From Alphaproteobacteria bacterium (GTDB taxonomy: Bacteria; Pseudomonadota; Alphaproteobacteria; CAAGCB01; CAG-977), in NCBI GenBank assembly GCA_045587165.1, contig JAZNBT010000055.1, forward strand, positions 7,017-71,016: a stretch of 64,000 nt of DNA, in the 5' to 3' direction. Under the pieces are notes generated by a model. It worked only from the letters and a program-made list of their open reading frames with translations. It had not been told where the DNA came from and searched no databases. Below, piece after piece: positions 42,442-54,345 of the stretch. Each line of letters begins with the position of its first letter. The stretch's first letter is position 1. The position numbers and the translations under genes are program-made.

Positions 42442-43596
42442 TTACTTAACTGTTAACAGATTGTATGACGGAGATACCAGTAATGTATCTTTCTGAACGG
42501 TCAATGTGCTGTTTGCAGGAAGATTTACAGCTTCAAGCGCAACAGCATCCGACCGGAGAGATACCGCCGTATCAAGCGTGATCGAAGGAGTGTTGGGAAG
42601 CTCTGTATAGGTTGTCTCAATCAATTTGCTGACAGTCTTATCCGATCCCGTTAAGGTGCCGTCCAACTCGACGGCTCTGACAAAGCCCGTATATAAATAC
42701 GGTTTTCTTAACAGCGGTTTTTTAAAGTCGTCCATAACGACATCAACCGCTTCGAACTTCGGCAGGCAAAGATTTAATTTCCTGTTCCAGACCAAGGGTT
42801 TTGCCGTTATGTTTGTATTCAGCTTTGTATACAATGTATTCAATCTGGGCGTACTGGCAACAAGAGTTGGCAGACAGTCACCGCAGCAGGCTTTTCCGGT
42901 GCCGGATCCTACTGTGCATTGTTTTCCGAGCGGACATGTCACGCCGTCACACGGGCTTTTGCAACCGCCGTTTCCGTCGGCGACTTGTACGTTGCTGCAC
43001 TGCGGATCGTTTGTGGATCCCAACGGATACGGTATGCAACGACCGATGCTGCAATAATGTCCCGTACCGCATGTTTTGTTGGTGCACAGAGGGCGCTTGA
43101 TCAAACAGTAGCCTAATGTCGTACATATACCGTTGCTGCCGCAATCACTGTTTTGCGTGCATTGTACGCATTTTCCATTACCGACGCATTTTAAGCCTTT
43201 ATCGGTGCATATCTTTGCCACTTCTGCTCTTTCACAGGGTGTTTTACATGTTCCCTTGTGATTTTCAGCGATACATTGAGAGCCGCTTATGGATGAGCAA
43301 TCAACGTTTTTGCAAGCGGAAACGCACTCGCCGCCGGAGGCACATTTTTCCGTCAGTTCGCAATCGCTGTCGGAAAGACAAACGTCTACAGACGCCGTAC
43401 CGCCTCCACTGCCGAAACCGCCGGTTTCTTTTGACGCAGTGTATGCCGGAGCAGAAATAACAGTCGCGTTTCTACCGATTTTTACCGCTTTTGCGATCAT
43501 AAACGTATCATTTGAAAAAATGCCGGAAGTTTCCGTTGCCTGAACAGGGCTGGCGGCAAACCAGACGGCTGTAAAAAACAAAAACAGTTTTTTCAT
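42442..43596 (-). CDS. Secreted cysteine-rich repeat protein (EGF-like / granulin-like Cys spacing), paralog A
   Basis: 384 aa. Signal peptide (...ASPVQA/TE) and a Gly-rich linker. About 190 aa hold over 40 Cys in repeating C-x4-5-C-x5-C-x4-5-C units ending in CCGDC. The C-terminal Cys-free roughly 140 aa share motifs with the neighbouring paralog. Confidence 0.5.
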   Translation of the reverse strand: MKKLFLFFTAVWFAASPVQATETSGIFSNDTFMIAKAVKIGRNATVISAPAYTASKETGGFGSGGGTASVDVCLSDSDCELTEKCASGGECVSACKNVDCSSISGSQCIAENHKGTCKTPCERAEVAKICTDKGLKCVGNGKCVQCTQNSDCGSNGICTTLGYCLIKRPLCTNKTCGTGHYCSIGRCIPYPLGSTNDPQCSNVQVADGNGGCKSPCDGVTCPLGKQCTVGSGTGKACCGDCLPTLVASTPRLNTLYTKLNTNITAKPLVWNRKLNLCLPKFEAVDVVMDDFKKPLLRKPYLYTGFVRAVELDGTLTGSDKTVSKLIETTYTELPNTPSITLDTAVSLRSDAVALEAVNLPANSTLTVQKDTLLVSPSYNLLTVK

Positions 43597-43629: not shown

Positions 43630-44697
43630 TTATTTGGCAACTTTTAACGCTTGCCATTTCGCCTGAGCGGCGACGGTTGCTTCTTCCATCAACACTTTTT
43701 TATTCAGAATTTCTTCCGCAACTACGGGATCGTCTAGAACCAATTTGGCCGTTTCGTCCTTCAAGGCGGCGTCTGTGGCGACCAATTCGAAATTTTCGAT
43801 TTTATATCTGTCAAGCAACACGGGTTTTAACGTGATGCCGGCGTCCGTCGCATCTTTTTGATATTCGCAACAACCGTCGTTACATTCCTGTCCTTCGCCG
43901 CATTTCACGCCGATACATTTCAGGTCGAAATCGATGGGAATGATTTCTGGCTTGCGGCATAGTTTCAACCTGCGGAATTTCTTGTTTGTGATGAATTTGC
44001 TGACCAAAGTTGTATCCAATACGCATTTGCTAGGATATTTGGCACAGTATCCGGCTCTGTTTTTCAACGGGTTGATGGTTTCGACTTCGGGATCCCATTC
44101 CGCGATTTTATACAACTGCGGATGTTTGACCGGCGTAATAAACGGTTTGAATTCATCTACCGTAAGATCGACGGTTTTAAAGCCGTTGTCGTCGACTTCG
44201 AAATCCGTTTTGAATTCTGCCACGTCGACAACATCGCTGTCGAATGTAACGCAGGGAATCGTGTCTATTTGAATGGCCGTATTCGGTAAAGTGGCAACGA
44301 TATCGTCAGAAACCAAATCAACGTCAGTTCTTGTACTGTCGTTTATTTGATCTTCCAAAACAATCCAACGATCGCTCGCTGTAAGAGTTAACAAGTCGGC
44401 TTTTTTAAATTGTGTCGTCGCTACTCCATTAATTGTTCTGACGGTAGTTCCTGTCGTAGTCGTTGTTGTCCCTGTTGTCGGTGTTGTGGTGGTGGGTGTA
44501 TATGTCGAAGTTCCACCGCTGCTGCCGCCGCTGACTCGATCGTCAACAGCCACGGCATATGACGCCTGTTGTTTTGCTACAGTTCCGACAGACGTGCCAT
44601 CCAAATCGGTTGCCACGGCATTCGCCGTTGTTGGCAGGATTGAAACGGCTGCGGGCAGAATCCCTATCGCCGCTGCGTAAAGGAAAAATTTCTTCAT
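43630..44697 (-). CDS. Secreted protein with mucin-like poly-Thr tract and C-terminal Cys-rich module, paralog B
   Basis: 355 aa. Signal peptide (...TTANA/VA) and low-complexity SGGSSGGTSTYTPTTTTPTTGTTTTTTGTT. Shares the LPNT..I..DT and VD..DFK..L.KP.LY motifs with paralog A, and its C-terminus ends in a CGEGQECNDGCC cluster. Confidence 0.5.
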   Translation of the reverse strand: MKKFFLYAAAIGILPAAVSILPTTANAVATDLDGTSVGTVAKQQASYAVAVDDRVSGGSSGGTSTYTPTTTTPTTGTTTTTTGTTVRTINGVATTQFKKADLLTLTASDRWIVLEDQINDSTRTDVDLVSDDIVATLPNTAIQIDTIPCVTFDSDVVDVAEFKTDFEVDDNGFKTVDLTVDEFKPFITPVKHPQLYKIAEWDPEVETINPLKNRAGYCAKYPSKCVLDTTLVSKFITNKKFRRLKLCRKPEIIPIDFDLKCIGVKCGEGQECNDGCCEYQKDATDAGITLKPVLLDRYKIENFELVATDAALKDETAKLVLDDPVVAEEILNKKVLMEEATVAAQAKWQALKVAK

Positions 44698-44749
44698 TAT
44701 ATGAGCCTCCTCTAATGTCTATAAATTTTTCTATATAATGGTAACATTT

Positions 44750-44767
44750 AATTGTGGCAAAATTATG
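44750..44767. repeat. 18-bp direct repeat AATTGTGGCAAAATTATG, copy 1, flanking the G-tract
   Basis: Perfect copy of the 18-mer that recurs at 44836-44853. Confidence 0.8.
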
Positions 44768-44781
44768 TAAATAATATGTTC

Positions 44782-44794
44782 GGGGGGGGGGGGG
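44782..44794. repeat. Homopolymeric G13 tract (C13 on the coding strand), candidate slipped-strand phase-variation switch, about 85-97 bp upstream of the paralog B start
   Basis: 13 consecutive G in an otherwise AT-rich intergenic region; no other homopolymer longer than 9 was noticed in the window. Confidence 0.8.
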
Positions 44795-44835
44795 TAACTT
44801 ATTGATTTTAAAAGATATTGTTTTATTTTTATTGC

Positions 44836-44853
44836 AATTGTGGCAAAATTATG
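44836..44853. repeat. 18-bp direct repeat AATTGTGGCAAAATTATG, copy 2
   Basis: Perfect copy of the 18-mer at 44750-44767. Confidence 0.8.
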
Positions 44854-44956
44854 GCAAAAAATGACAAATTTGTCCGCCATTCTTTTGTTTATGAATTTTT
44901 GATCTTTCGGGCATATTTGAAAATTCCGCCCGTTATTGCAACATGACGCAAAGCAA

Positions 44957-45910
44957 TCAAGGGTGCTTTAATAAATCTTTCAACGATTTCCAATGGTTAA
45001 ACTGAAAATGCGCTTTAATTCTGTCATAGACGGCTTTGTATTTATATCTGCGCAATCCTGAAGAATTCCAGTAATGAAGATATATTTTGTAAGGTTTGAA
45101 AATTGCCGCCGATCCGAACGAATTCCACGGTTTTTCATAGGCGATATAATGAAAAATTCCTGTGTTGTTCATATCTGCGGAATGGAGTGTCCTGAAAATC
45201 TGATTGTTCCATTTCGGATGCAGCGTTACGATGTCATTATTAAATAAACAGTTTAACAAGTCTTGTTCGCCGTATCCTTTATATTTTTTCGGATTTTTTT
45301 CAAAACTGGAAATTATTTTTTCAAACAGATTGTTTTTTTTCCATTTATCCGTATTTATTAAAATAACTCCGGCGTTGTAATAAATATCCGTTGAGCATAT
45401 TCTTCTTAAATCCGGTGAAACATCTTCCACCATTGCGAAAAAATGATTTTTTAAATCCGTTTGGAATATTTCTTTTAAATCTTGCATTACCAACGTGTCC
45501 GCGTCCATATACAAAACTTTGCTTACTTCGTCCGGTAAAAGCGAAGGAATGAACAGCCGCATGAAAGAAATAAAGGATACATGCTTATATTGGGAAGAGT
45601 ACATATGTTTTATTAATGGAAAATATGTCTGATATAACGAAGATTGATGCGGGGAGATAAAATTTATTTTTTGATTTCTTTTTTCAACATACTTTTTCAT
45701 CAGTTTTTTATTTTTTTCGGAAACGTTGTTTTCCAAAATCCAAAAAGTATATTCTGAACCGGATTTGTTGTTTTTTAGAATGGAATTGATGGAAAGAAGT
45801 GTATAAACAGCATAGCTGTCACTGATATTATAGGCAACGTGGACGGCATCATTCGCGATTGTTTTGAATGAAATTAAAATAAATAAAAAAGCTAAAACAA
45901 ACCGTTTCAT
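44957..45910 (-). CDS. Glycosyltransferase family 8 protein (LgtC/glycogenin-like) with N-terminal signal anchor
   Basis: 317 aa. GT8 motifs including DXD (LYMDADTLV) and the C-terminal H-x-x-G-x-x-KPW motif (HYIAYEKPW). N-terminal hydrophobic segment MKRFVLAFLFILISF. Very AT-rich (about 30% GC). Confidence 0.7.
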   Translation of the reverse strand: MKRFVLAFLFILISFKTIANDAVHVAYNISDSYAVYTLLSINSILKNNKSGSEYTFWILENNVSEKNKKLMKKYVEKRNQKINFISPHQSSLYQTYFPLIKHMYSSQYKHVSFISFMRLFIPSLLPDEVSKVLYMDADTLVMQDLKEIFQTDLKNHFFAMVEDVSPDLRRICSTDIYYNAGVILINTDKWKKNNLFEKIISSFEKNPKKYKGYGEQDLLNCLFNNDIVTLHPKWNNQIFRTLHSADMNNTGIFHYIAYEKPWNSFGSAAIFKPYKIYLHYWNSSGLRRYKYKAVYDRIKAHFQFNHWKSLKDLLKHP

Positions 45911-47340: not shown

Positions 47341-50300
47341 ATGATGAAAAATCGATTTTTTATAATTTTATGTTTTTTTACATTTTCGGCGTTTCCTGCA
47401 TTTGCCGAAGAGTTAAACTACAATGATTCCGAGACATTTCCGGAATTTTTCAAAAACGTAGATGCTTTGATCGCGATCGGTGCGGATAAAGCCTATACCG
47501 GAGCGGACGGTACGGCATATTCCGGATTTTCAGGGGCGGGAGTGACCGTTGCCGTCATTGATAACGGGACAATGGCGAATCATCCGGATCTCGTGCAGTC
47601 ACACAGCACTCTGCAAAAACCGCAATTTAATATTTCCGCAGAAAAACACGGTACGCACGTCGCCGGTATCATTGCCGCGGAAAAAAACGGTTCCGGAATG
47701 CACGGGGTGGCATATAATTCCGATTTGTTGCTTTTTTCCACTTCACTGGAAGGCGGCTGCGGCGGCATGGAGGGCTGTTTGAGCCCGATGGCGGCTTTAG
47801 AGGCATTGTTGGACAGTGAATACGATGACGTTAAAATTATTAACAACAGTTGGGGGCTTTTTGAAGAGGATATCAACGAAAATGTATTGGCCAATATTCA
47901 TCGGTTGATGGATGCCATCGTCGCCAAAGATAAACTGATCGTTGCTTCCGCCGGAAATGATATGGAGTTGAATCCCAATACTTTTCCCGCCGGTGTCGGG
48001 CTGTTGGATAATTCCTTTAAAAATAATGTAATTAATGTTGTCGCTTATGATTCGTTCAAAAATCATTCCGCTAACGATTTTATCGCGTCTTTTTCCAATT
48101 TGGCAGGTGACGCAAAGGAATGGACTCTGGCCGCCCCCGGAAAAAATATTTATTCTTCGATTTTATATGATGAAACGGCAGACCCTCCCGCGGAAAAATT
48201 CGCTGAGATGAACGGTACATCCATGGCGGCGCCGCTTGTTTCCGGCGCGGCCGCTTTGGTTCAGGAAGCTTTCCCTTATTTAGGCGGCAAACAAATCGCC
48301 GATATTTTGTTTTCTACGGCAAAAAAGAAAAAGGATTTGGATGAAACAGGTTCGGGGCTGAGCCCGTATATGATTCAAAATTATTCGGGACAAACGCGTG
48401 TTTTATTCTTTAAAGATAATAAAGAGGGCACTACGTTTGAAGAAGCCAAAGCTGCCGCCGCTTCGCTCGGATACTCTTGCGGCGGATCCGTTTCCTGTCA
48501 CGAAGTCACGTTTGAAGATGTCTTCGGTCAGGGATTGTTGGATGTCGGGACGGCTGTCAAAGGCATTAAATATTTCGATGCGTCCAGATTGACGGCCGAA
48601 GATTTCGACATAGGAAAAAACCAGTTTTATTACAGTGTTGATACTTTGGGTATGGACAGCGTATGGAGCAACGATATCGGTCAGCTCCGATCAAGCGACG
48701 AATTGTATAAAACGGCGAATGTCGGTTTAAGAAAACGGGGTGAAGGCGTTTTAACCTTGGCCGGAGCAAATACGTTTTTAGGTACTTCGGTCGTTGACGG
48801 CGGTGAATTGAATTTGACGGGCAGCATGGAAGGCGATGTTGTTGTCAATACGGGAACGTTTTCCTTGTCGGATACCGGTTTGATGAACGGCAAAATAACG
48901 ACGAATGCCGACGGATTGTTGCGGATAGAAGATTCCGGAACGCTTTTAAATCTTGAAAATAACGGAAAGACTTTGGCCTCGGGCGGAAAATCAACGGGGA
49001 ATGTTGTTAATAACGGAACGTTTTCCGTCGCCGGAGGAGGTTTTATATCAAGCAGAACATTTACAAATAAAAACAATTTTCAGTTTGAAACCGACGGACG
49101 TTTTTCAGGCGTTTTAGATAACGAAGGGCTTGTTTCCGTTATAGGTAACAGCGAAATAGAAGGAAATCTTAACAACAAATCGTCCGGAATCGTTTTTGTG
49201 AACGCCACGATAGGAAATTCGTCGGCTATAGAGAATTATGGTCTTTTATCCGGTGAAGGCGACATAACGGGATCTGTTGTCAATCATGAATCGGGTACCG
49301 TCGCGACAACATTGAAGATTCATGATTTAAATTCTACCGGAAATATTCAGTTGTCCGAAAATCCGGACGGATTGGCCACTTTGAAGGTCAATACACTGAA
49401 TATTACAGGGGGGGCTTTGACGATCGCAAGCGGTAATATCAGCTATGAAAACGGGCAAACCTATTCGGTGATTGAATTTGATAATCTGACGAGTTTTGAA
49501 AATTTCGAACCGCAATCGAAACTGTCCGATTTTATTGTGGCGACGCCTCATGTAAACGGCAACCGTATTGAAGCCAGAATCGATTATTTGCGTATGGGCG
49601 AATCCGCTGCGACGGAAACATTTCTACCGGAAGAAAAAGTCGTCGCCGGTATTATGGATAAAATGTATTTTGACGACAGTAATAAGGATTTAAAAGGGTA
49701 TTTTTATCTGTCCGGCAAAGAACTGCAAAAGGAAATCAATACGATCCGTTCCAAAGCAAAGCCGATTCAAAAAGAACATTTACCGTTGGCGGGAACAATG
49801 TCTTCACAGGTTTCCAATCATTTATTCAAGGTAAATATGAATCGTGACGCGGCGACGTTTCATCGTCAATACAGACCGATGCAGCAATACAGGGGCCGAT
49901 ATTACAACCGCGGTTCCGTCGGCAGGTATTATCGCGGCAGATCCGGCGGCAGCGCTCCGAAAACGGGAAACAAGATCTGGGGGCAAATTCTGGGCGGCAG
50001 AGTTGTTGAGGAGGACAATGTTTCGGACAGGGGGAATGTCAAAACCAGAACGGTCGGCGGTATGATCGGATACGATCATGAAATTTCATCGCGATCTTTA
50101 ATCGGTATTACGGCCGGTTATGCTTCGGGGCGTTTGACGCAATCTTCGGATGAAATTAACGTTAATGATTATCGCGCGGGGATTTACACGGGATCCAGAT
50201 TCGGCAAACTGACGTTTAACACGATGTTGTTGGGCGGTTTTCAACAATATAAAAGCGAACGGTATACGGAAGCCGCCGGTTTAAATGCTTTGCATCGGGC

Positions 50301-50799
50301 TGATTTTAACGGATATTCCGCGGAATTGGATGTAAATCTGGGCTATGATTTCATGCGTTTGCCGTATCGGGATTATTCTTTTTATCTGCGATCCTATCTG
50401 GCGGCGAACGTCAATTATATTTCTCAGGATTCATATGAAGAAAAAGGGGAATCGCCAATGCTGTTAGGCGTTGACAGCATTAATAACACTTCTGTCAGTA
50501 TTCAGCCGGGGATTACGATCGGTTATACCTTTTCTCAGGCCGTTTTGACGGCTGATTTCGGTTATCAGCGGATTTTAAGCGGTGATTCCGTTCAATCTTC
50601 GGCTTATTTCCTTGCGGATACGGCAAGAACACCGTTTGAATCTTTATCGGCGGAATCGGATAAAGATTATATTAATGCCGGCGTCGGTCTGAAAACAAAC
50701 CTGACCCGTAACGTTGAATTGAATTTGTATGCCGGTATGCGGAAATCCGATAATACCGAGGCGATTAATTTCGCCGCATCGCTGTCGTATGCTTTTTAA
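47341..50799 (+). CDS. Subtilisin-like (peptidase S8) autotransporter, paralog 1
   Basis: 1152 aa. Signal peptide; S8 catalytic triad motifs (VAVIDNGT, HGTHVAGIIAA, GTSMAAPLVSGAAAL); Gly/Asn-rich beta-helix passenger repeats; Tyr/Arg-rich linker; about 280-aa C-terminal beta-barrel ending in SYAF. Confidence 0.85.
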   Translation: MMKNRFFIILCFFTFSAFPAFAEELNYNDSETFPEFFKNVDALIAIGADKAYTGADGTAYSGFSGAGVTVAVIDNGTMANHPDLVQSHSTLQKPQFNISAEKHGTHVAGIIAAEKNGSGMHGVAYNSDLLLFSTSLEGGCGGMEGCLSPMAALEALLDSEYDDVKIINNSWGLFEEDINENVLANIHRLMDAIVAKDKLIVASAGNDMELNPNTFPAGVGLLDNSFKNNVINVVAYDSFKNHSANDFIASFSNLAGDAKEWTLAAPGKNIYSSILYDETADPPAEKFAEMNGTSMAAPLVSGAAALVQEAFPYLGGKQIADILFSTAKKKKDLDETGSGLSPYMIQNYSGQTRVLFFKDNKEGTTFEEAKAAAASLGYSCGGSVSCHEVTFEDVFGQGLLDVGTAVKGIKYFDASRLTAEDFDIGKNQFYYSVDTLGMDSVWSNDIGQLRSSDELYKTANVGLRKRGEGVLTLAGANTFLGTSVVDGGELNLTGSMEGDVVVNTGTFSLSDTGLMNGKITTNADGLLRIEDSGTLLNLENNGKTLASGGKSTGNVVNNGTFSVAGGGFISSRTFTNKNNFQFETDGRFSGVLDNEGLVSVIGNSEIEGNLNNKSSGIVFVNATIGNSSAIENYGLLSGEGDITGSVVNHESGTVATTLKIHDLNSTGNIQLSENPDGLATLKVNTLNITGGALTIASGNISYENGQTYSVIEFDNLTSFENFEPQSKLSDFIVATPHVNGNRIEARIDYLRMGESAATETFLPEEKVVAGIMDKMYFDDSNKDLKGYFYLSGKELQKEINTIRSKAKPIQKEHLPLAGTMSSQVSNHLFKVNMNRDAATFHRQYRPMQQYRGRYYNRGSVGRYYRGRSGGSAPKTGNKIWGQILGGRVVEEDNVSDRGNVKTRTVGGMIGYDHEISSRSLIGITAGYASGRLTQSSDEINVNDYRAGIYTGSRFGKLTFNTMLLGGFQQYKSERYTEAAGLNALHRADFNGYSAELDVNLGYDFMRLPYRDYSFYLRSYLAANVNYISQDSYEEKGESPMLLGVDSINNTSVSIQPGITIGYTFSQAVLTADFGYQRILSGDSVQSSAYFLADTARTPFESLSAESDKDYINAGVGLKTNLTRNVELNLYAGMRKSDNTEAINFAASLSYAF

Positions 50800-50820
50800 T
50801 AAAACAAAGAGGGAAATGCG

Positions 50821-53800
50821 GTGTTGAAATATAACCTTTTTCCTCTTTTCTTTGCTCTGCCGTTTTCCGCAGCCTTTGCGGCGGATACGGAATATTCCGT
50901 CAATCAAAAAGCTTATGACGCTTTAGGGGCGTCGCAGGCGTATGCGTTGGGCTTTACGGGGGCGGGCGTTACGGTCGCCGTTGTCGACAACGGAACGCTT
51001 GCCACGCATCAGGAATTGAAAGACAAATTCAGCGAACTGCAAAAGGACGAATACAATCATTATCAGGATATTGCGGATCACGGTACGCCGGTTTCCAGTA
51101 TAATTGCCGGAAAAAAGGACGGAACGGGCATGCACGGTATCGCATATGATTCGCAAATCGTCGCTTTCGCCGTAGAGTTGGACGACGGTGTGGATTGTCC
51201 GTCATGCTATCAAGGTTATGCGGAAGCTTGGAATATTCTGGCGACGGATGAATTTGACAGCGTTAAGATTATCAATAACAGTATCGGAAGTTATGATCAT
51301 TTACCTGATTCCACTCCTTCTTCCGATAGAAGAAGCGCGGCGGCGGCTCTGGTCGCAAAGGATAAATTGATTGTTGCGGGTGCGGGAAACGATACTTCTT
51401 TGTCTCCCGCCGACAGTCCGGCCGGGCTGCCTTATTATGATTCCAGTCTGAAGTATAATTTCATCAGCGCGATCGCGTATAATGCATATTATACCTCATC
51501 CAGTCCGTATTTTTTGGAAAGTTATACCAATTTGGCTCAATATGCGCAGGAATGGTCGTTAGCGGCACCGGTCGGATCTTTGAGGGCGGCATCGCATGAA
51601 GGGGATTCTTCCTATACGAATTTTGCCGGAACGTCTGCGGCGACACCGGTTATTTCAGGCGCTGCTGCCGTCGTATCCAGCGCTTTTCCTTATATGGGCG
51701 GGAAACAACTGGCTGACGTTTTGTTTTCCACTGCCGATAAAAATTATGCCGGTTTCAGTGATTATATGATTCAAAAAGATAACGGCAAATTGCAATTTTT
51801 GTTTTTCGGGTCGGCCGACGGATACGGCAAAGATTGGTCGGACGATGAAAAAAAAGCGATCGTTCAAGCGGAAATGGGCGGCGCGTATACGTGTTCGACT
51901 GAAGGCGTTTTTTGTGTCGACGTCAGTTATGCCGACGTTTTCGGCCAAGGGGTGTTAAATTTGGCCAATGCCGTCAAAGGCCCCGGCTATTTGGATGCCA
52001 ATCGTCTGAAGCTTTCCGATTTTACGGGAACGCAGTATGTTTATACGGTCGACGTGCAAGAATATGACAGCACGTGGAGCAATAATATCGGTCAGGTTAA
52101 ATCAAAAACCGAAAATATTGATGCGGACGTCGGCCTGAAAAAACAGGGGGCGGGAACTTTGACCCTTTCCGGACAGAATACGTATTTAGGGACGACGACG
52201 ATTGAAAGCGGTGCATTACGCTTGACAGGAACATTGGCCGGGGATGTGTCCGTCGCTTCGGGAACATTTTATTTAAACGGCGGAACCGTTTTCGGAAAAA
52301 CGGTTTCTTTGGCCGGCGGGGAAGTTAATGTTGACGGCGGAACGTTATTTTCGCTCAGCGGAGCCGGAACGGTTAACTTTTCGGCGGGATCTGTTCGAGA
52401 GGTGAAAAATCAGGGGAATTTTTACCTGACGGGAAGCGGGCTTATTGCCGATTCGGTCGAAAATACCGGACAATTTTATTTTAACGGCGGTTCGATAAAA
52501 GGTTCCGTTTCAAACGAAGGGAATTTTTATTTAAACAATCCGTCGTTTTCTCAAAAAATCCAAAATACGGGAACGGTTCAAAACAATACGTTATTGAAAG
52601 AAGGGTTGGTTATCGGCGGAACGTTGGTTAATCAGGCAGGAGGTCTTCTTTATTTGACTTCGACACCGGATACGTTGATCAATTACGGCGGAATAGTTTT
52701 ATCTCCTTCGTCGACAGATGCCTCCGTTTTACAGCAAATGACGGTTTCTCATTTAACGTTGGCCGGCGGAGGATTTGTGCTGGATACGAATAATTTGCCG
52801 GAATTCGGGGAAGGAATGTCCTATCAGATTTTAAAGGCTGAAAATTCTTTAAGTATCGGTGATGATTTTAAGCTTTCCGATCAGATCGGCCAATTTATTG
52901 TCGCCCGAACGAATGTAGACAACACGGAAAGAACGATTTCTTTATCATTGGAGTTTTTGCCTTTATCTTCAACGTCTTATGCTCCGAATTTAACGGAAAT
53001 GGAACGTCAAACGGCGACGGTGATCGATCGTTTGTTTAAAAACGAACATTTCAATGATTTCTCGGGATTTTATTTCTTGGATGAAAAAGGTTTGAAAGAT
53101 CGGATAAATAAAATAAAAGATCAGGTAAAACCGGTTCATTTTGCTTCTTTGCCGTTGTCAAACAGGTTGGGACGGACGATCCAAACACATCTTTTTGAAC
53201 GTCAAACCGGTAAAGATCCGTATCGGTATAACGGCGGACGGCGGTATTATGAACCGTTATCCCCCGGTCGCCATTCGCCGCGAGGGGACGTATACCGCAA
53301 TTATCGTCCCGGTAATACGCCTCAGGAAAATTATCGTCATGCCGTTCCGCGGACGAATGATGTGTACCGCAATTATCGTCCGGGTAATGCGCCTCAAGAA
53401 AATTATCGTTATTATGTGCCGCGCAAACGCGACGTTTACCGTAATTTCAGACCGAACGGTCGTTCCGGCGGACAATCGTTCGGTATGCGGACAAACGTTT
53501 GGGGGCAAATGTTGTATGCCAAAAGCACGTATGATGCCGATGAGCTTTCCGGCGGGACCGAAGCCGAGGGCACCGGCATAGGGCTGATGTTCGGATGGGA
53601 TTTCGTTTATTCGAAAGACTTTTTGTGGGGGGTGACGGCCGGATATGCACAGTCGTCCGTTGAACAAGACGACGACAATACCGATGTGACCGATTTGCGT
53701 TTCGGCGCCTATTTCAGTCGACAAAAGGATTTTTTGTCCGTTGACGGCGTATTGATGATCGGATTGCAAAGTTATGATAAAAAACGCGTTACGGATTTGC

Positions 53801-54345
53801 CGATGAAGACGTTTGAACATTCGGCGTCTTTTAACGGAACCAGTGTTGAGGCCGCTTTGAATGTAGGATATGACCTGCATCAGATTCCCATGCAGGCGGG
53901 CGATTGGTCTTTCAGGCCTTATATCGGTGCGACGGTTATACAGATGACGCAAGACGCCTACAGTGAAACAGGTTCATCTGATCTGAATTTATCCGTACAG
54001 GAAGCCAAAGACACTTCCGTTATTTTATCCCCCGGTTTAATTGCCGGATTTGTCGCCGCAGATACGAGTCTTTTCTTGATCAAGCCGGAATACGTCTTTT
54101 TTGATTTGCGTTATGATCAATATTTATCGGGGGGGAATGCCTCGACAAAAGCTTATTTCAGTGCGGATACGCTGCAGACGATGTTTGAATCTCCGGACAG
54201 TGAAGAAAAATCCGCGTTTACGTTCGGGGTAGGCGTTAACGGCCGTATATCTAAAAATACGCGTTTGAACTTGCTGTTCAGCAACAGAGCCGGTTCTAAA
54301 TCGTCTTCGCAGTCGATTTCGGCGACACTGATTCATTCGTTCTGA
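50821..54345 (+). CDS. Subtilisin-like (peptidase S8) autotransporter, paralog 2
   Basis: 1174 aa with GTG start after an AGAGGG RBS. S8 motifs (VAVVDNGT, HGTPVSSIIAG, GTSAATPVISGAAAV); beta-helix passenger; internal 72-bp tandem repeats; C-terminal barrel ending in IHSF. Confidence 0.85.
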   Translation: MLKYNLFPLFFALPFSAAFAADTEYSVNQKAYDALGASQAYALGFTGAGVTVAVVDNGTLATHQELKDKFSELQKDEYNHYQDIADHGTPVSSIIAGKKDGTGMHGIAYDSQIVAFAVELDDGVDCPSCYQGYAEAWNILATDEFDSVKIINNSIGSYDHLPDSTPSSDRRSAAAALVAKDKLIVAGAGNDTSLSPADSPAGLPYYDSSLKYNFISAIAYNAYYTSSSPYFLESYTNLAQYAQEWSLAAPVGSLRAASHEGDSSYTNFAGTSAATPVISGAAAVVSSAFPYMGGKQLADVLFSTADKNYAGFSDYMIQKDNGKLQFLFFGSADGYGKDWSDDEKKAIVQAEMGGAYTCSTEGVFCVDVSYADVFGQGVLNLANAVKGPGYLDANRLKLSDFTGTQYVYTVDVQEYDSTWSNNIGQVKSKTENIDADVGLKKQGAGTLTLSGQNTYLGTTTIESGALRLTGTLAGDVSVASGTFYLNGGTVFGKTVSLAGGEVNVDGGTLFSLSGAGTVNFSAGSVREVKNQGNFYLTGSGLIADSVENTGQFYFNGGSIKGSVSNEGNFYLNNPSFSQKIQNTGTVQNNTLLKEGLVIGGTLVNQAGGLLYLTSTPDTLINYGGIVLSPSSTDASVLQQMTVSHLTLAGGGFVLDTNNLPEFGEGMSYQILKAENSLSIGDDFKLSDQIGQFIVARTNVDNTERTISLSLEFLPLSSTSYAPNLTEMERQTATVIDRLFKNEHFNDFSGFYFLDEKGLKDRINKIKDQVKPVHFASLPLSNRLGRTIQTHLFERQTGKDPYRYNGGRRYYEPLSPGRHSPRGDVYRNYRPGNTPQENYRHAVPRTNDVYRNYRPGNAPQENYRYYVPRKRDVYRNFRPNGRSGGQSFGMRTNVWGQMLYAKSTYDADELSGGTEAEGTGIGLMFGWDFVYSKDFLWGVTAGYAQSSVEQDDDNTDVTDLRFGAYFSRQKDFLSVDGVLMIGLQSYDKKRVTDLPMKTFEHSASFNGTSVEAALNVGYDLHQIPMQAGDWSFRPYIGATVIQMTQDAYSETGSSDLNLSVQEAKDTSVILSPGLIAGFVAADTSLFLIKPEYVFFDLRYDQYLSGGNASTKAYFSADTLQTMFESPDSEEKSAFTFGVGVNGRISKNTRLNLLFSNRAGSKSSSQSISATLIHSF
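53287..53460 (+). repeat. About 2.4 tandem copies of a 72-bp coding repeat (DVYRNYRPGN(T/A)PQENYR) in the autotransporter 2 linker
   Basis: Units at 53287-53337 and 53359-53409 are near-identical (3 mismatches), and a degenerate third unit follows. Confidence 0.8.

Follow-up and report, generated by a model that had tools for sequence, protein, structure and literature searches.

Does the long homopolymer in front of a two-gene operon for secreted proteins act as a length-variable switch of that operon? The tract is found in the 259 bp that separate a GT8 glycosyltransferase gene from the first operon gene, within the stretch of alphaproteobacterial DNA analysed here (64,000 nucleotides in full length, called the window below). 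Slipped-strand contingency loci are textbook features of mucosal pathogens such as Neisseria, Haemophilus, Bordetella, Helicobacter and Campylobacter. The group of the present organism, presumably RF32/CAG-239, is to our knowledge represented by metagenome bins only. Full-text searches on homopolymeric-tract phase variation in gut metagenomes and on gut RF32/CAG-239 Alphaproteobacteria brought up no description of such a switch in the group. Judging from the sequence comparisons described below, we lean towards reading the C13 run as a slipped-strand (simple-sequence-repeat) contingency tract in the promoter cassette of a fast-evolving operon for secreted Cys-rich proteins.

Arrangement of the promoter cassette

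On the plus strand, positions 44782-44794 read G13 (C13 on the coding strand). The exact 18-mer AATTGTGGCAAAATTATG was found in two copies, at 44750-44767 and 44836-44853, with a start-to-start distance of 86 bp. The homopolymer, the identical flanking 18-mers and the 259-bp gap from the GT8 gene to the gene of a 355-aa protein had all been described in the first-pass annotation; the tract was recovered both by reading the sequence and by script, the two repeat copies proved to be exact, and the length of the gap agreed with the gene boundaries (GT8 44957-45910; 355-aa gene 43630-44697). Apart from G13, runs of G or C reach at most 7 nt in the 64-kb window; from base composition, about 0.0006 runs of length 13 would be expected there. 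A search of the window for further matches to the 18-mer, allowing up to 3 mismatches, gave none against 0.32 expected. The operon is located on the minus strand, and C13 lies 85-97 nt upstream of the ATG of its first gene. The elements of the locus are as follows:

42442-43596, minus strand: second gene, beginning 33 nt past the end of the first and encoding a secreted Cys-rich protein of 384 aa
43630-44697, minus strand: first gene, 355-aa protein with signal peptide, Thr-rich linker and conserved C-terminal Cys motif (CxGVKCGEGQEC..GCCxY)
44695-44712, minus strand: Shine-Dalgarno sequence GAGGAGG (44712-44706) and ATG of the first gene (44697-44695), kept in all lineages
44750-44767, minus strand: proximal 18-mer CATAATTTTGCCACAATT, exact repeat, with CATAAT (44767-44762) as candidate -10
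about 44755, minus strand: putative +1, an A inside the proximal 18-mer, according to our promoter assignment
44768-44853, minus strand: 86-bp segment composed of one 18-mer copy, AT-rich spacer, tract and 14 nt, missing in strain L001
44782-44794, minus strand: poly-C13 tract, the putative hypermutable element, 14 nt upstream of the proximal CATAAT
44795-44835, minus strand: AT-rich spacer between distal 18-mer and tract, possibly UP-element-like
44836-44853, minus strand: distal 18-mer, identical to the proximal copy
44861-44852, minus strand: extra tandem 11-nt unit TTTTTTGCCA, preceding the distal 18-mer
44848-44876, minus strand: candidate sigma-70 promoter at the distal copy, CGGACA-17-CATAAT, in which TG precedes the -10; a consensus match only
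44957-45910, minus strand: GT8 glycosyltransferase gene (Pfam PF01501, E 2.7e-45)

Read along the coding strand, the distal CATAATTTTGCCACAATT is followed by 41 nt of AT-rich DNA, C13, a further 14 nt and the proximal CATAATTTTGCCACAATT, after which come 37 nt, GAGGAGG, 8 nt and the ATG. The 40 nt adjoining the tract have an AT content of 88% in the window, 82% in L028 and 85% in L031. In the window, the candidate -35 is overlapped by a perfect palindrome of 12 bp, GACAAATTTGTC (44863-44874), just upstream of the distal repeat; the palindrome has no conserved counterpart in L028 or L007.

Position and length of the tract in related loci

Among the fetched contigs encoding homologs, a poly-C run was present at the equivalent site upstream of every ortholog in the protein clusters P0002-P0007. 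It lies 12-14 nt upstream of the invariant CATAATTYYGCCA / CATAATTT(T/C)GCCACA, and the sequence of this 12-14-nt spacer (GAACATATTATTTA, TGTTTTACATCAAA, ATATTTTTTAAA, ATATTTTCTTTAA) is not conserved between lineages. The complete tracts are listed below; L004-L009 all encode the identical P0004 protein.

Window: C13
L004: C12
L005: C6AC7, interrupted
L006 and L008: C14
L007: C5TC10, interrupted
L009: C16
L020: C14
L025 (another lineage): C20
L028 and L029: C13

With C13 in the window and C12-C20 in the relatives, these runs are well within the range of about 8 or more G/C that is regarded as prone to slippage. Among closely related strains the length is polymorphic, with 12, 13, 14, 14 and 16 Cs in addition to the two interrupted alleles, all taken from short-read assemblies, in which one-base differences and the two interruptions may be errors. 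Short-read assemblies miscall long homopolymers by about one base. The clearest comparison comes from six conspecific 9-kb loci (L004-L008 and L028) of 99.3-99.7% identity, the multiple alignment of which contained 101 SNP columns and 3 indel sites. The tract was the sole indel with more than two alleles, namely C12, C13, C14, C14, C6AC7 and C5TC10. As far as sequences can tell, a hypermutable tract would be expected to behave in this way if selection keeps it in place.

A slipped-strand phase-variable promoter tract had been proposed in the first-pass annotation, together with a check of isolates for length variation. In sister species the proposal fared well, the position being conserved and the length differing between near-identical strains as predicted. 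In the window species, for which strain variation rests on P0001/L001-L003 only, the alleles seen were C13 and a tract-less deletion allele and no others. A pattern scan of metagenomes returned two loci, one with the same allele as L028 and the other a probable chimera.

A further 18 contigs end inside or at the tract. These ends are compatible with reversible length change at high frequency, without being proof of it, and the tract explains the assembly breaks at this site in these genomes. So many contig ends, as well as a contig (L030) joined to unrelated coding sequence exactly at the tract, might also be taken as signs that the homopolymer itself is a sequencing or assembly artefact, such as poly-G from two-colour chemistry or a chimeric join. 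This is almost certainly wrong, since nine or more independent assemblies, which stem from different projects and assemblers, have the tract in an internal position and with the same flanks (seen in the window, L004-L009, L025 and L028).

In L030, a low-coverage metagenome contig, the CDS of an HsdM-like N6 DNA methylase is joined to the 3' edge of the tract, and poly-C is missing (L030:5290-5625). This junction is probably a misassembly at the homopolymer; it may be a real rearrangement. A second recurrent break point, unexplained by the tract, was seen in two species: the contigs L002, L003 and L015 begin within CATTAGAGGAGG, 18-20 nt before the ATG (L002:1-22, L003:1-23, L015:1-21). The contig of the most divergent lineage, L032, ends 13 nt upstream of CATAAT with CCGTCGC (L032:1-14).

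Location of the operon promoter

The gene upstream of the cassette is divergent in L028, and in L031 the cassette is preceded by a tRNA gene and an intrinsic terminator. Therefore, the operon promoter must lie within the cassette. When the sequences were scanned for the sigma-70 consensus, the distal copy was recognised as CGGACA-17-CATAAT in the window and, as consensus matches only, as CTGCCA-17-CATAAT in L028 and TCGACA-18-CACAAT in L031. The sigma-70-like distal sites in these three lineages support CAYAAT as a -10 element, and with this assignment the conserved TTYGCC-A would represent the discriminator and +1. In the same scan, the proximal CATAAT was not paired as -10 with any -35. Between the end of the tract and the invariant CATAAT there are 12-14 nt in every lineage, and by our reading the tract would occupy the site of a -35 hexamer at 16-18 nt spacing.

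Other assignments could be made. TTGCCA within the 18-mer could serve as a -35, with an AT-rich hexamer 17 nt downstream (TATATA, TAAAAG, TAGATT or AATAAT); this is weakened because GCCA is constant across lineages but TTG is not (TCGCCA, CCGCCA). Alternatively, CACAAT with the preceding TG (TGCCACAAT) could form an extended -10. If the distal copy were an active promoter, the tract would be part of its 5' leader and effects on the proximal promoter could be masked.

Transcription from the distal copy, which scores as a promoter in three lineages, is also the starting point for a role at the RNA level, with the poly-C of the leader acting, for example, as a Rho loading site or pairing with GAGGAGG. 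Predicted folds leave the poly-C single-stranded, as for a Rho site, but the tract is not paired to the Shine-Dalgarno sequence in them, and the leader shows neither a stable nor a conserved structure, folding no better than shuffled sequence in two species (z-scores +0.98 and +0.37). Furthermore, a change by one or two Cs would hardly alter such a function, and we consider this role very improbable. An Rfam search of the leader gave no match, only a sub-threshold plant miRNA.

Two further mechanisms were tried and rejected. Frameshift control would concern a 49-aa ORF across the tract (44731-44880, minus strand), which is without a start codon in L028. For a spacer-type (opc-like) switch the upstream edge of the tract is too far away for a sigma-70 spacer, as it lies 14 + 13 = 27 nt from CATAAT in the window and at least 26 nt from it in every complete tract elsewhere.

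The repeat module and a natural deletion allele

The sequence CATAATTyyGCCAyA is invariant in the 8 aligned lineages, and nowhere in the leader is conservation higher than in the proximal copy. Across lineages, 15 positions are invariant or near-invariant in both 18-mer copies. The distal copy is present in 3/3 lineages for which the whole intergenic region was available. It takes the form of two 11-nt units in tandem, GCCAYAATTTYGCCAYAATT, and this tandem arrangement is conserved in L028, L007 and L031. L031, a divergent lineage, possesses the two modules, with TTTTCCTTTTTT in place of poly-C; therefore, the module pair is older than the tract. The distance between distal and proximal modules amounts to 77, 86 or 99-103 bp, without a constant helical phase between lineages.

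Each 18-mer may be a duplicated core-promoter module, instead of or besides an operator, because each holds the -10-like CATAAT followed by TTTGCC-A and because a -35-like hexamer sits 17-18 bp upstream of the distal copy in three lineages. As operators, a role close to that proposed in the first-pass annotation (paired regulator sites with a spacing tuned by the tract), the two copies would be candidate sites for a regulator that binds both, as NadR does, one site covering the -10 and the start site and the other lying distal to the tract; tract length would then alter their spacing and phase, and hence looping or cooperative repression or activation. We see this as possible but rather unlikely, and it is compatible with a contingency tract formed by slippage, not exclusive of it. 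Identical 18-mers flank the tract, the conservation of 15 positions in both goes well beyond the needs of a -10 hexamer, no further occurrence of the motif was found in the window or the loci, the units repeat at an 11-bp period as for sites on one helix face, and the module, as judged from L031, predates the tract. A precedent exists in the NadR operators that flank the nadA repeat tract, one of which overlaps the -10 and +1 (PMC2791445). On the other hand, the spacing that differs between lineages offers no common helical phase, and known motifs were not recognised in the cassette, in which patterns for the BvgA heptad, CtrA (TTAA-N7-TTAA), CRP and FNR had zero matches.

Strain L001, which belongs to the same species as the window, is 96.7% identical to it over 2.3 kb and has a single 18-mer. 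The left flank of this 18-mer is that of the distal copy and the right flank that of the proximal copy, which amounts to a precise loss of 86 bp between the repeats, tract included. An assembler working with 31-mers cannot collapse an 18-bp repeat, so we infer that the junction must exist in the reads.

This natural allele without the tract, and the lineage of L031 that has none, fit a hot spot that lies upstream of the real promoter or in the 5' leader and has no effect on expression, all the more as the operon could be transcribed from the candidate distal sigma-70-like promoter whatever the state of the tract. But a neutral tract should soon be broken by point mutations, whereas at least 12 uninterrupted Cs are kept at this site in the window and six further protein lineages, although the spacer has diverged. 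Moreover, no other such tract occurs in the fetched sequence (in all fetched related loci, G/C runs of at least 9 were found at the tract position only), and the genes downstream of this one encode the secreted proteins that evolve fastest at the locus. A silent tract is improbable in our view.

A possible mechanism of switching

In the favoured explanation, the contingency tract would gain or lose Cs by replication slippage. The proximal promoter would consist of CATAAT as -10 and the A of GCCA as +1, with the tract filling about -27 to -39, i.e. the -35 site. Tract length would set the distance and the helical register of the -10 relative to the upstream parts, namely the UP-like stretch of 82-88% AT and the distal repeat module, which might be a second promoter or a regulator site. 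The proximal promoter would depend on upstream contacts, either with the UP-like element or with a factor at the distal module, and transcription of the operon would change stepwise or in an on/off manner with the number of Cs. The 86-bp deletion between the 18-bp repeats would provide a second, irreversible route; it removes the tract and would fuse the distal -35/-10 to the proximal leader, as in L001.

The two routes might form a two-tier switch, in which slippage gives reversible graded control, through operator/UP-element phasing by a cassette-specific regulator, and repeat deletion acts as an irreversible 'lock'. In this elaborate form the proposal is unlikely. If true, the architecture would be new and the lineage would have its first described contingency locus, with control over a genus-restricted orphan family of Cys-rich secreted proteins in uncultured gut bacteria. 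Slipped-strand loci as such are of a known kind; what is unusual here is the conserved module pair that brackets the tract, together with the natural deletion allele.

Comparison with known phase-variable promoters

Functionally closest, as far as an analogy can be drawn, would be Bordetella fim, H. pylori sabA and meningococcal nadA. In the fim2/fim3 promoters of Bordetella pertussis, about 13-15 Cs are located immediately upstream of the -10, at the place of the -35, and single-C changes decide the register of upstream-bound factors relative to RNA polymerase; the gene product is a surface structure (PMC10172299). In the cassette studied here the C tract would likewise lie at the -35 place if CATAAT is the -10. 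Unlike fim2/fim3, this tract is bracketed by identical 18-mers, and whereas fim2/fim3 belong to a betaproteobacterial pathogen, it comes from an uncultured gut bacterium related to a MAG labelled Rhodospirillaceae. The BvgA heptads TTTCCTA / TAGGAAA were absent from the cassettes of the window, L028 and L031, so the cassette would be a functional analogue only and not a member of the BvgA-dependent family.

In nadA of Neisseria meningitidis, two high-affinity operator copies flank the variable tract with an AT-rich stretch between them, and one NadR operator overlaps the -10 and the start site while the other is distal (PMC2791445). Here, too, two copies of one sequence flank the tract with AT-rich DNA in between, and the proximal copy would overlap the -10 and +1 as we assign them. 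The nadA tract is made up of TAAA tetranucleotides and lies well upstream of the -35, whereas the present homopolymer abuts the putative core promoter. Switches of the nadA type involve the MarR-family repressor NadR on the operators and IHF between them; neither a NadR-like protein nor an IHF site was recognised here.

In the sabA promoter of Helicobacter pylori, a T-tract lies next to the core promoter and downstream of AT-rich UP-like elements, and its strain-variable length was proposed to shift the axial alignment of upstream elements relative to the core promoter (PMC4081817). Our cassette has a homopolymer by the putative core promoter, AT-rich UP-like DNA upstream of it and length differences between strains as well. 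The sabA tract is poly-T beside a recognisable -35; here it is poly-C, and the putative proximal promoter has no recognisable -35. For N. meningitidis opc, porA and fetA, promoter poly-C or poly-G gives graded or on/off expression of outer-membrane proteins (summarised in PMC2791445). There the tract is placed between -35 and -10, whereas the far edge of the tract described here is at least 26 nt from CATAAT (27 in the window).

The operon and its neighbourhood

The same two-gene pair is present in every related locus. For the 355-aa protein no match was obtained in Pfam or NCBIfam, and only 10 homologous clusters were found among 5.8 billion proteins; a structure prediction yielded no confident model and no match. 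The family is an orphan and fast-evolving. The label 'paralog B' used in the first-pass annotation turned out to be loose, as paralogy between the 355-aa and 384-aa proteins was not detectable by BLASTP (E 0.03). Exact-sequence look-ups of the 355-aa protein, GT8 and RodA of the window found no records, and in a species-level genome collection the one match was 'uncultured Rhodospirillaceae bacterium UMGS1296' (L028).

Between the window and L028, RodA is 92% identical, in contrast to 44% for the 355-aa and 54% for the 384-aa protein. Therefore, the operon evolves far faster than the adjoining housekeeping gene, and as target genes the two genes fit the type of switch that we favour. If this switch is real, the 355-aa/384-aa operon would encode a host- or phage-exposed surface factor under fluctuating selection. 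The locus would then offer a handle on an orphan protein family, and strain-level heterogeneity in gut metagenomes could be studied on a concrete example.

The window has MreC, MreD, PBP2 and RodA on one side of the cassette and two S8 autotransporters on the other. The latter are tandem S8 subtilase autotransporter genes (1152 and 1174 aa) at 47341-54345, near the cassette, and S8 subtilase autotransporter genes adjoin it in L031 as well (L031:1-4472), so the neighbourhood is rich in surface proteins.

The poly-Thr linker (TPTTTTPTTGTTTTTTGTT) of the 355-aa protein and the upstream GT8 gene co-occur in the window lineage only; in other species a divergent zf-CDGSH gene or a tRNA gene lies upstream of the cassette and the proteins are without poly-Thr. 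With GT8 next to a poly-Thr linker, the linker could be O-glycosylated. A third gene of 735 aa, without a Pfam match, follows the Cys-rich gene in several related species, namely in L004 (L004:6328-8535) and also in L005-L014, L025-L027 and L033. It is absent from the window and from the P0003, P0007 and P0010 lineages, in which RodA follows directly. Upstream of the cassette of the sister species, a 6-bp in-frame indel in a GCTGSC repeat (L004:225-240) was observed in an ABC-transporter gene that is part of a type I secretion-like pair.
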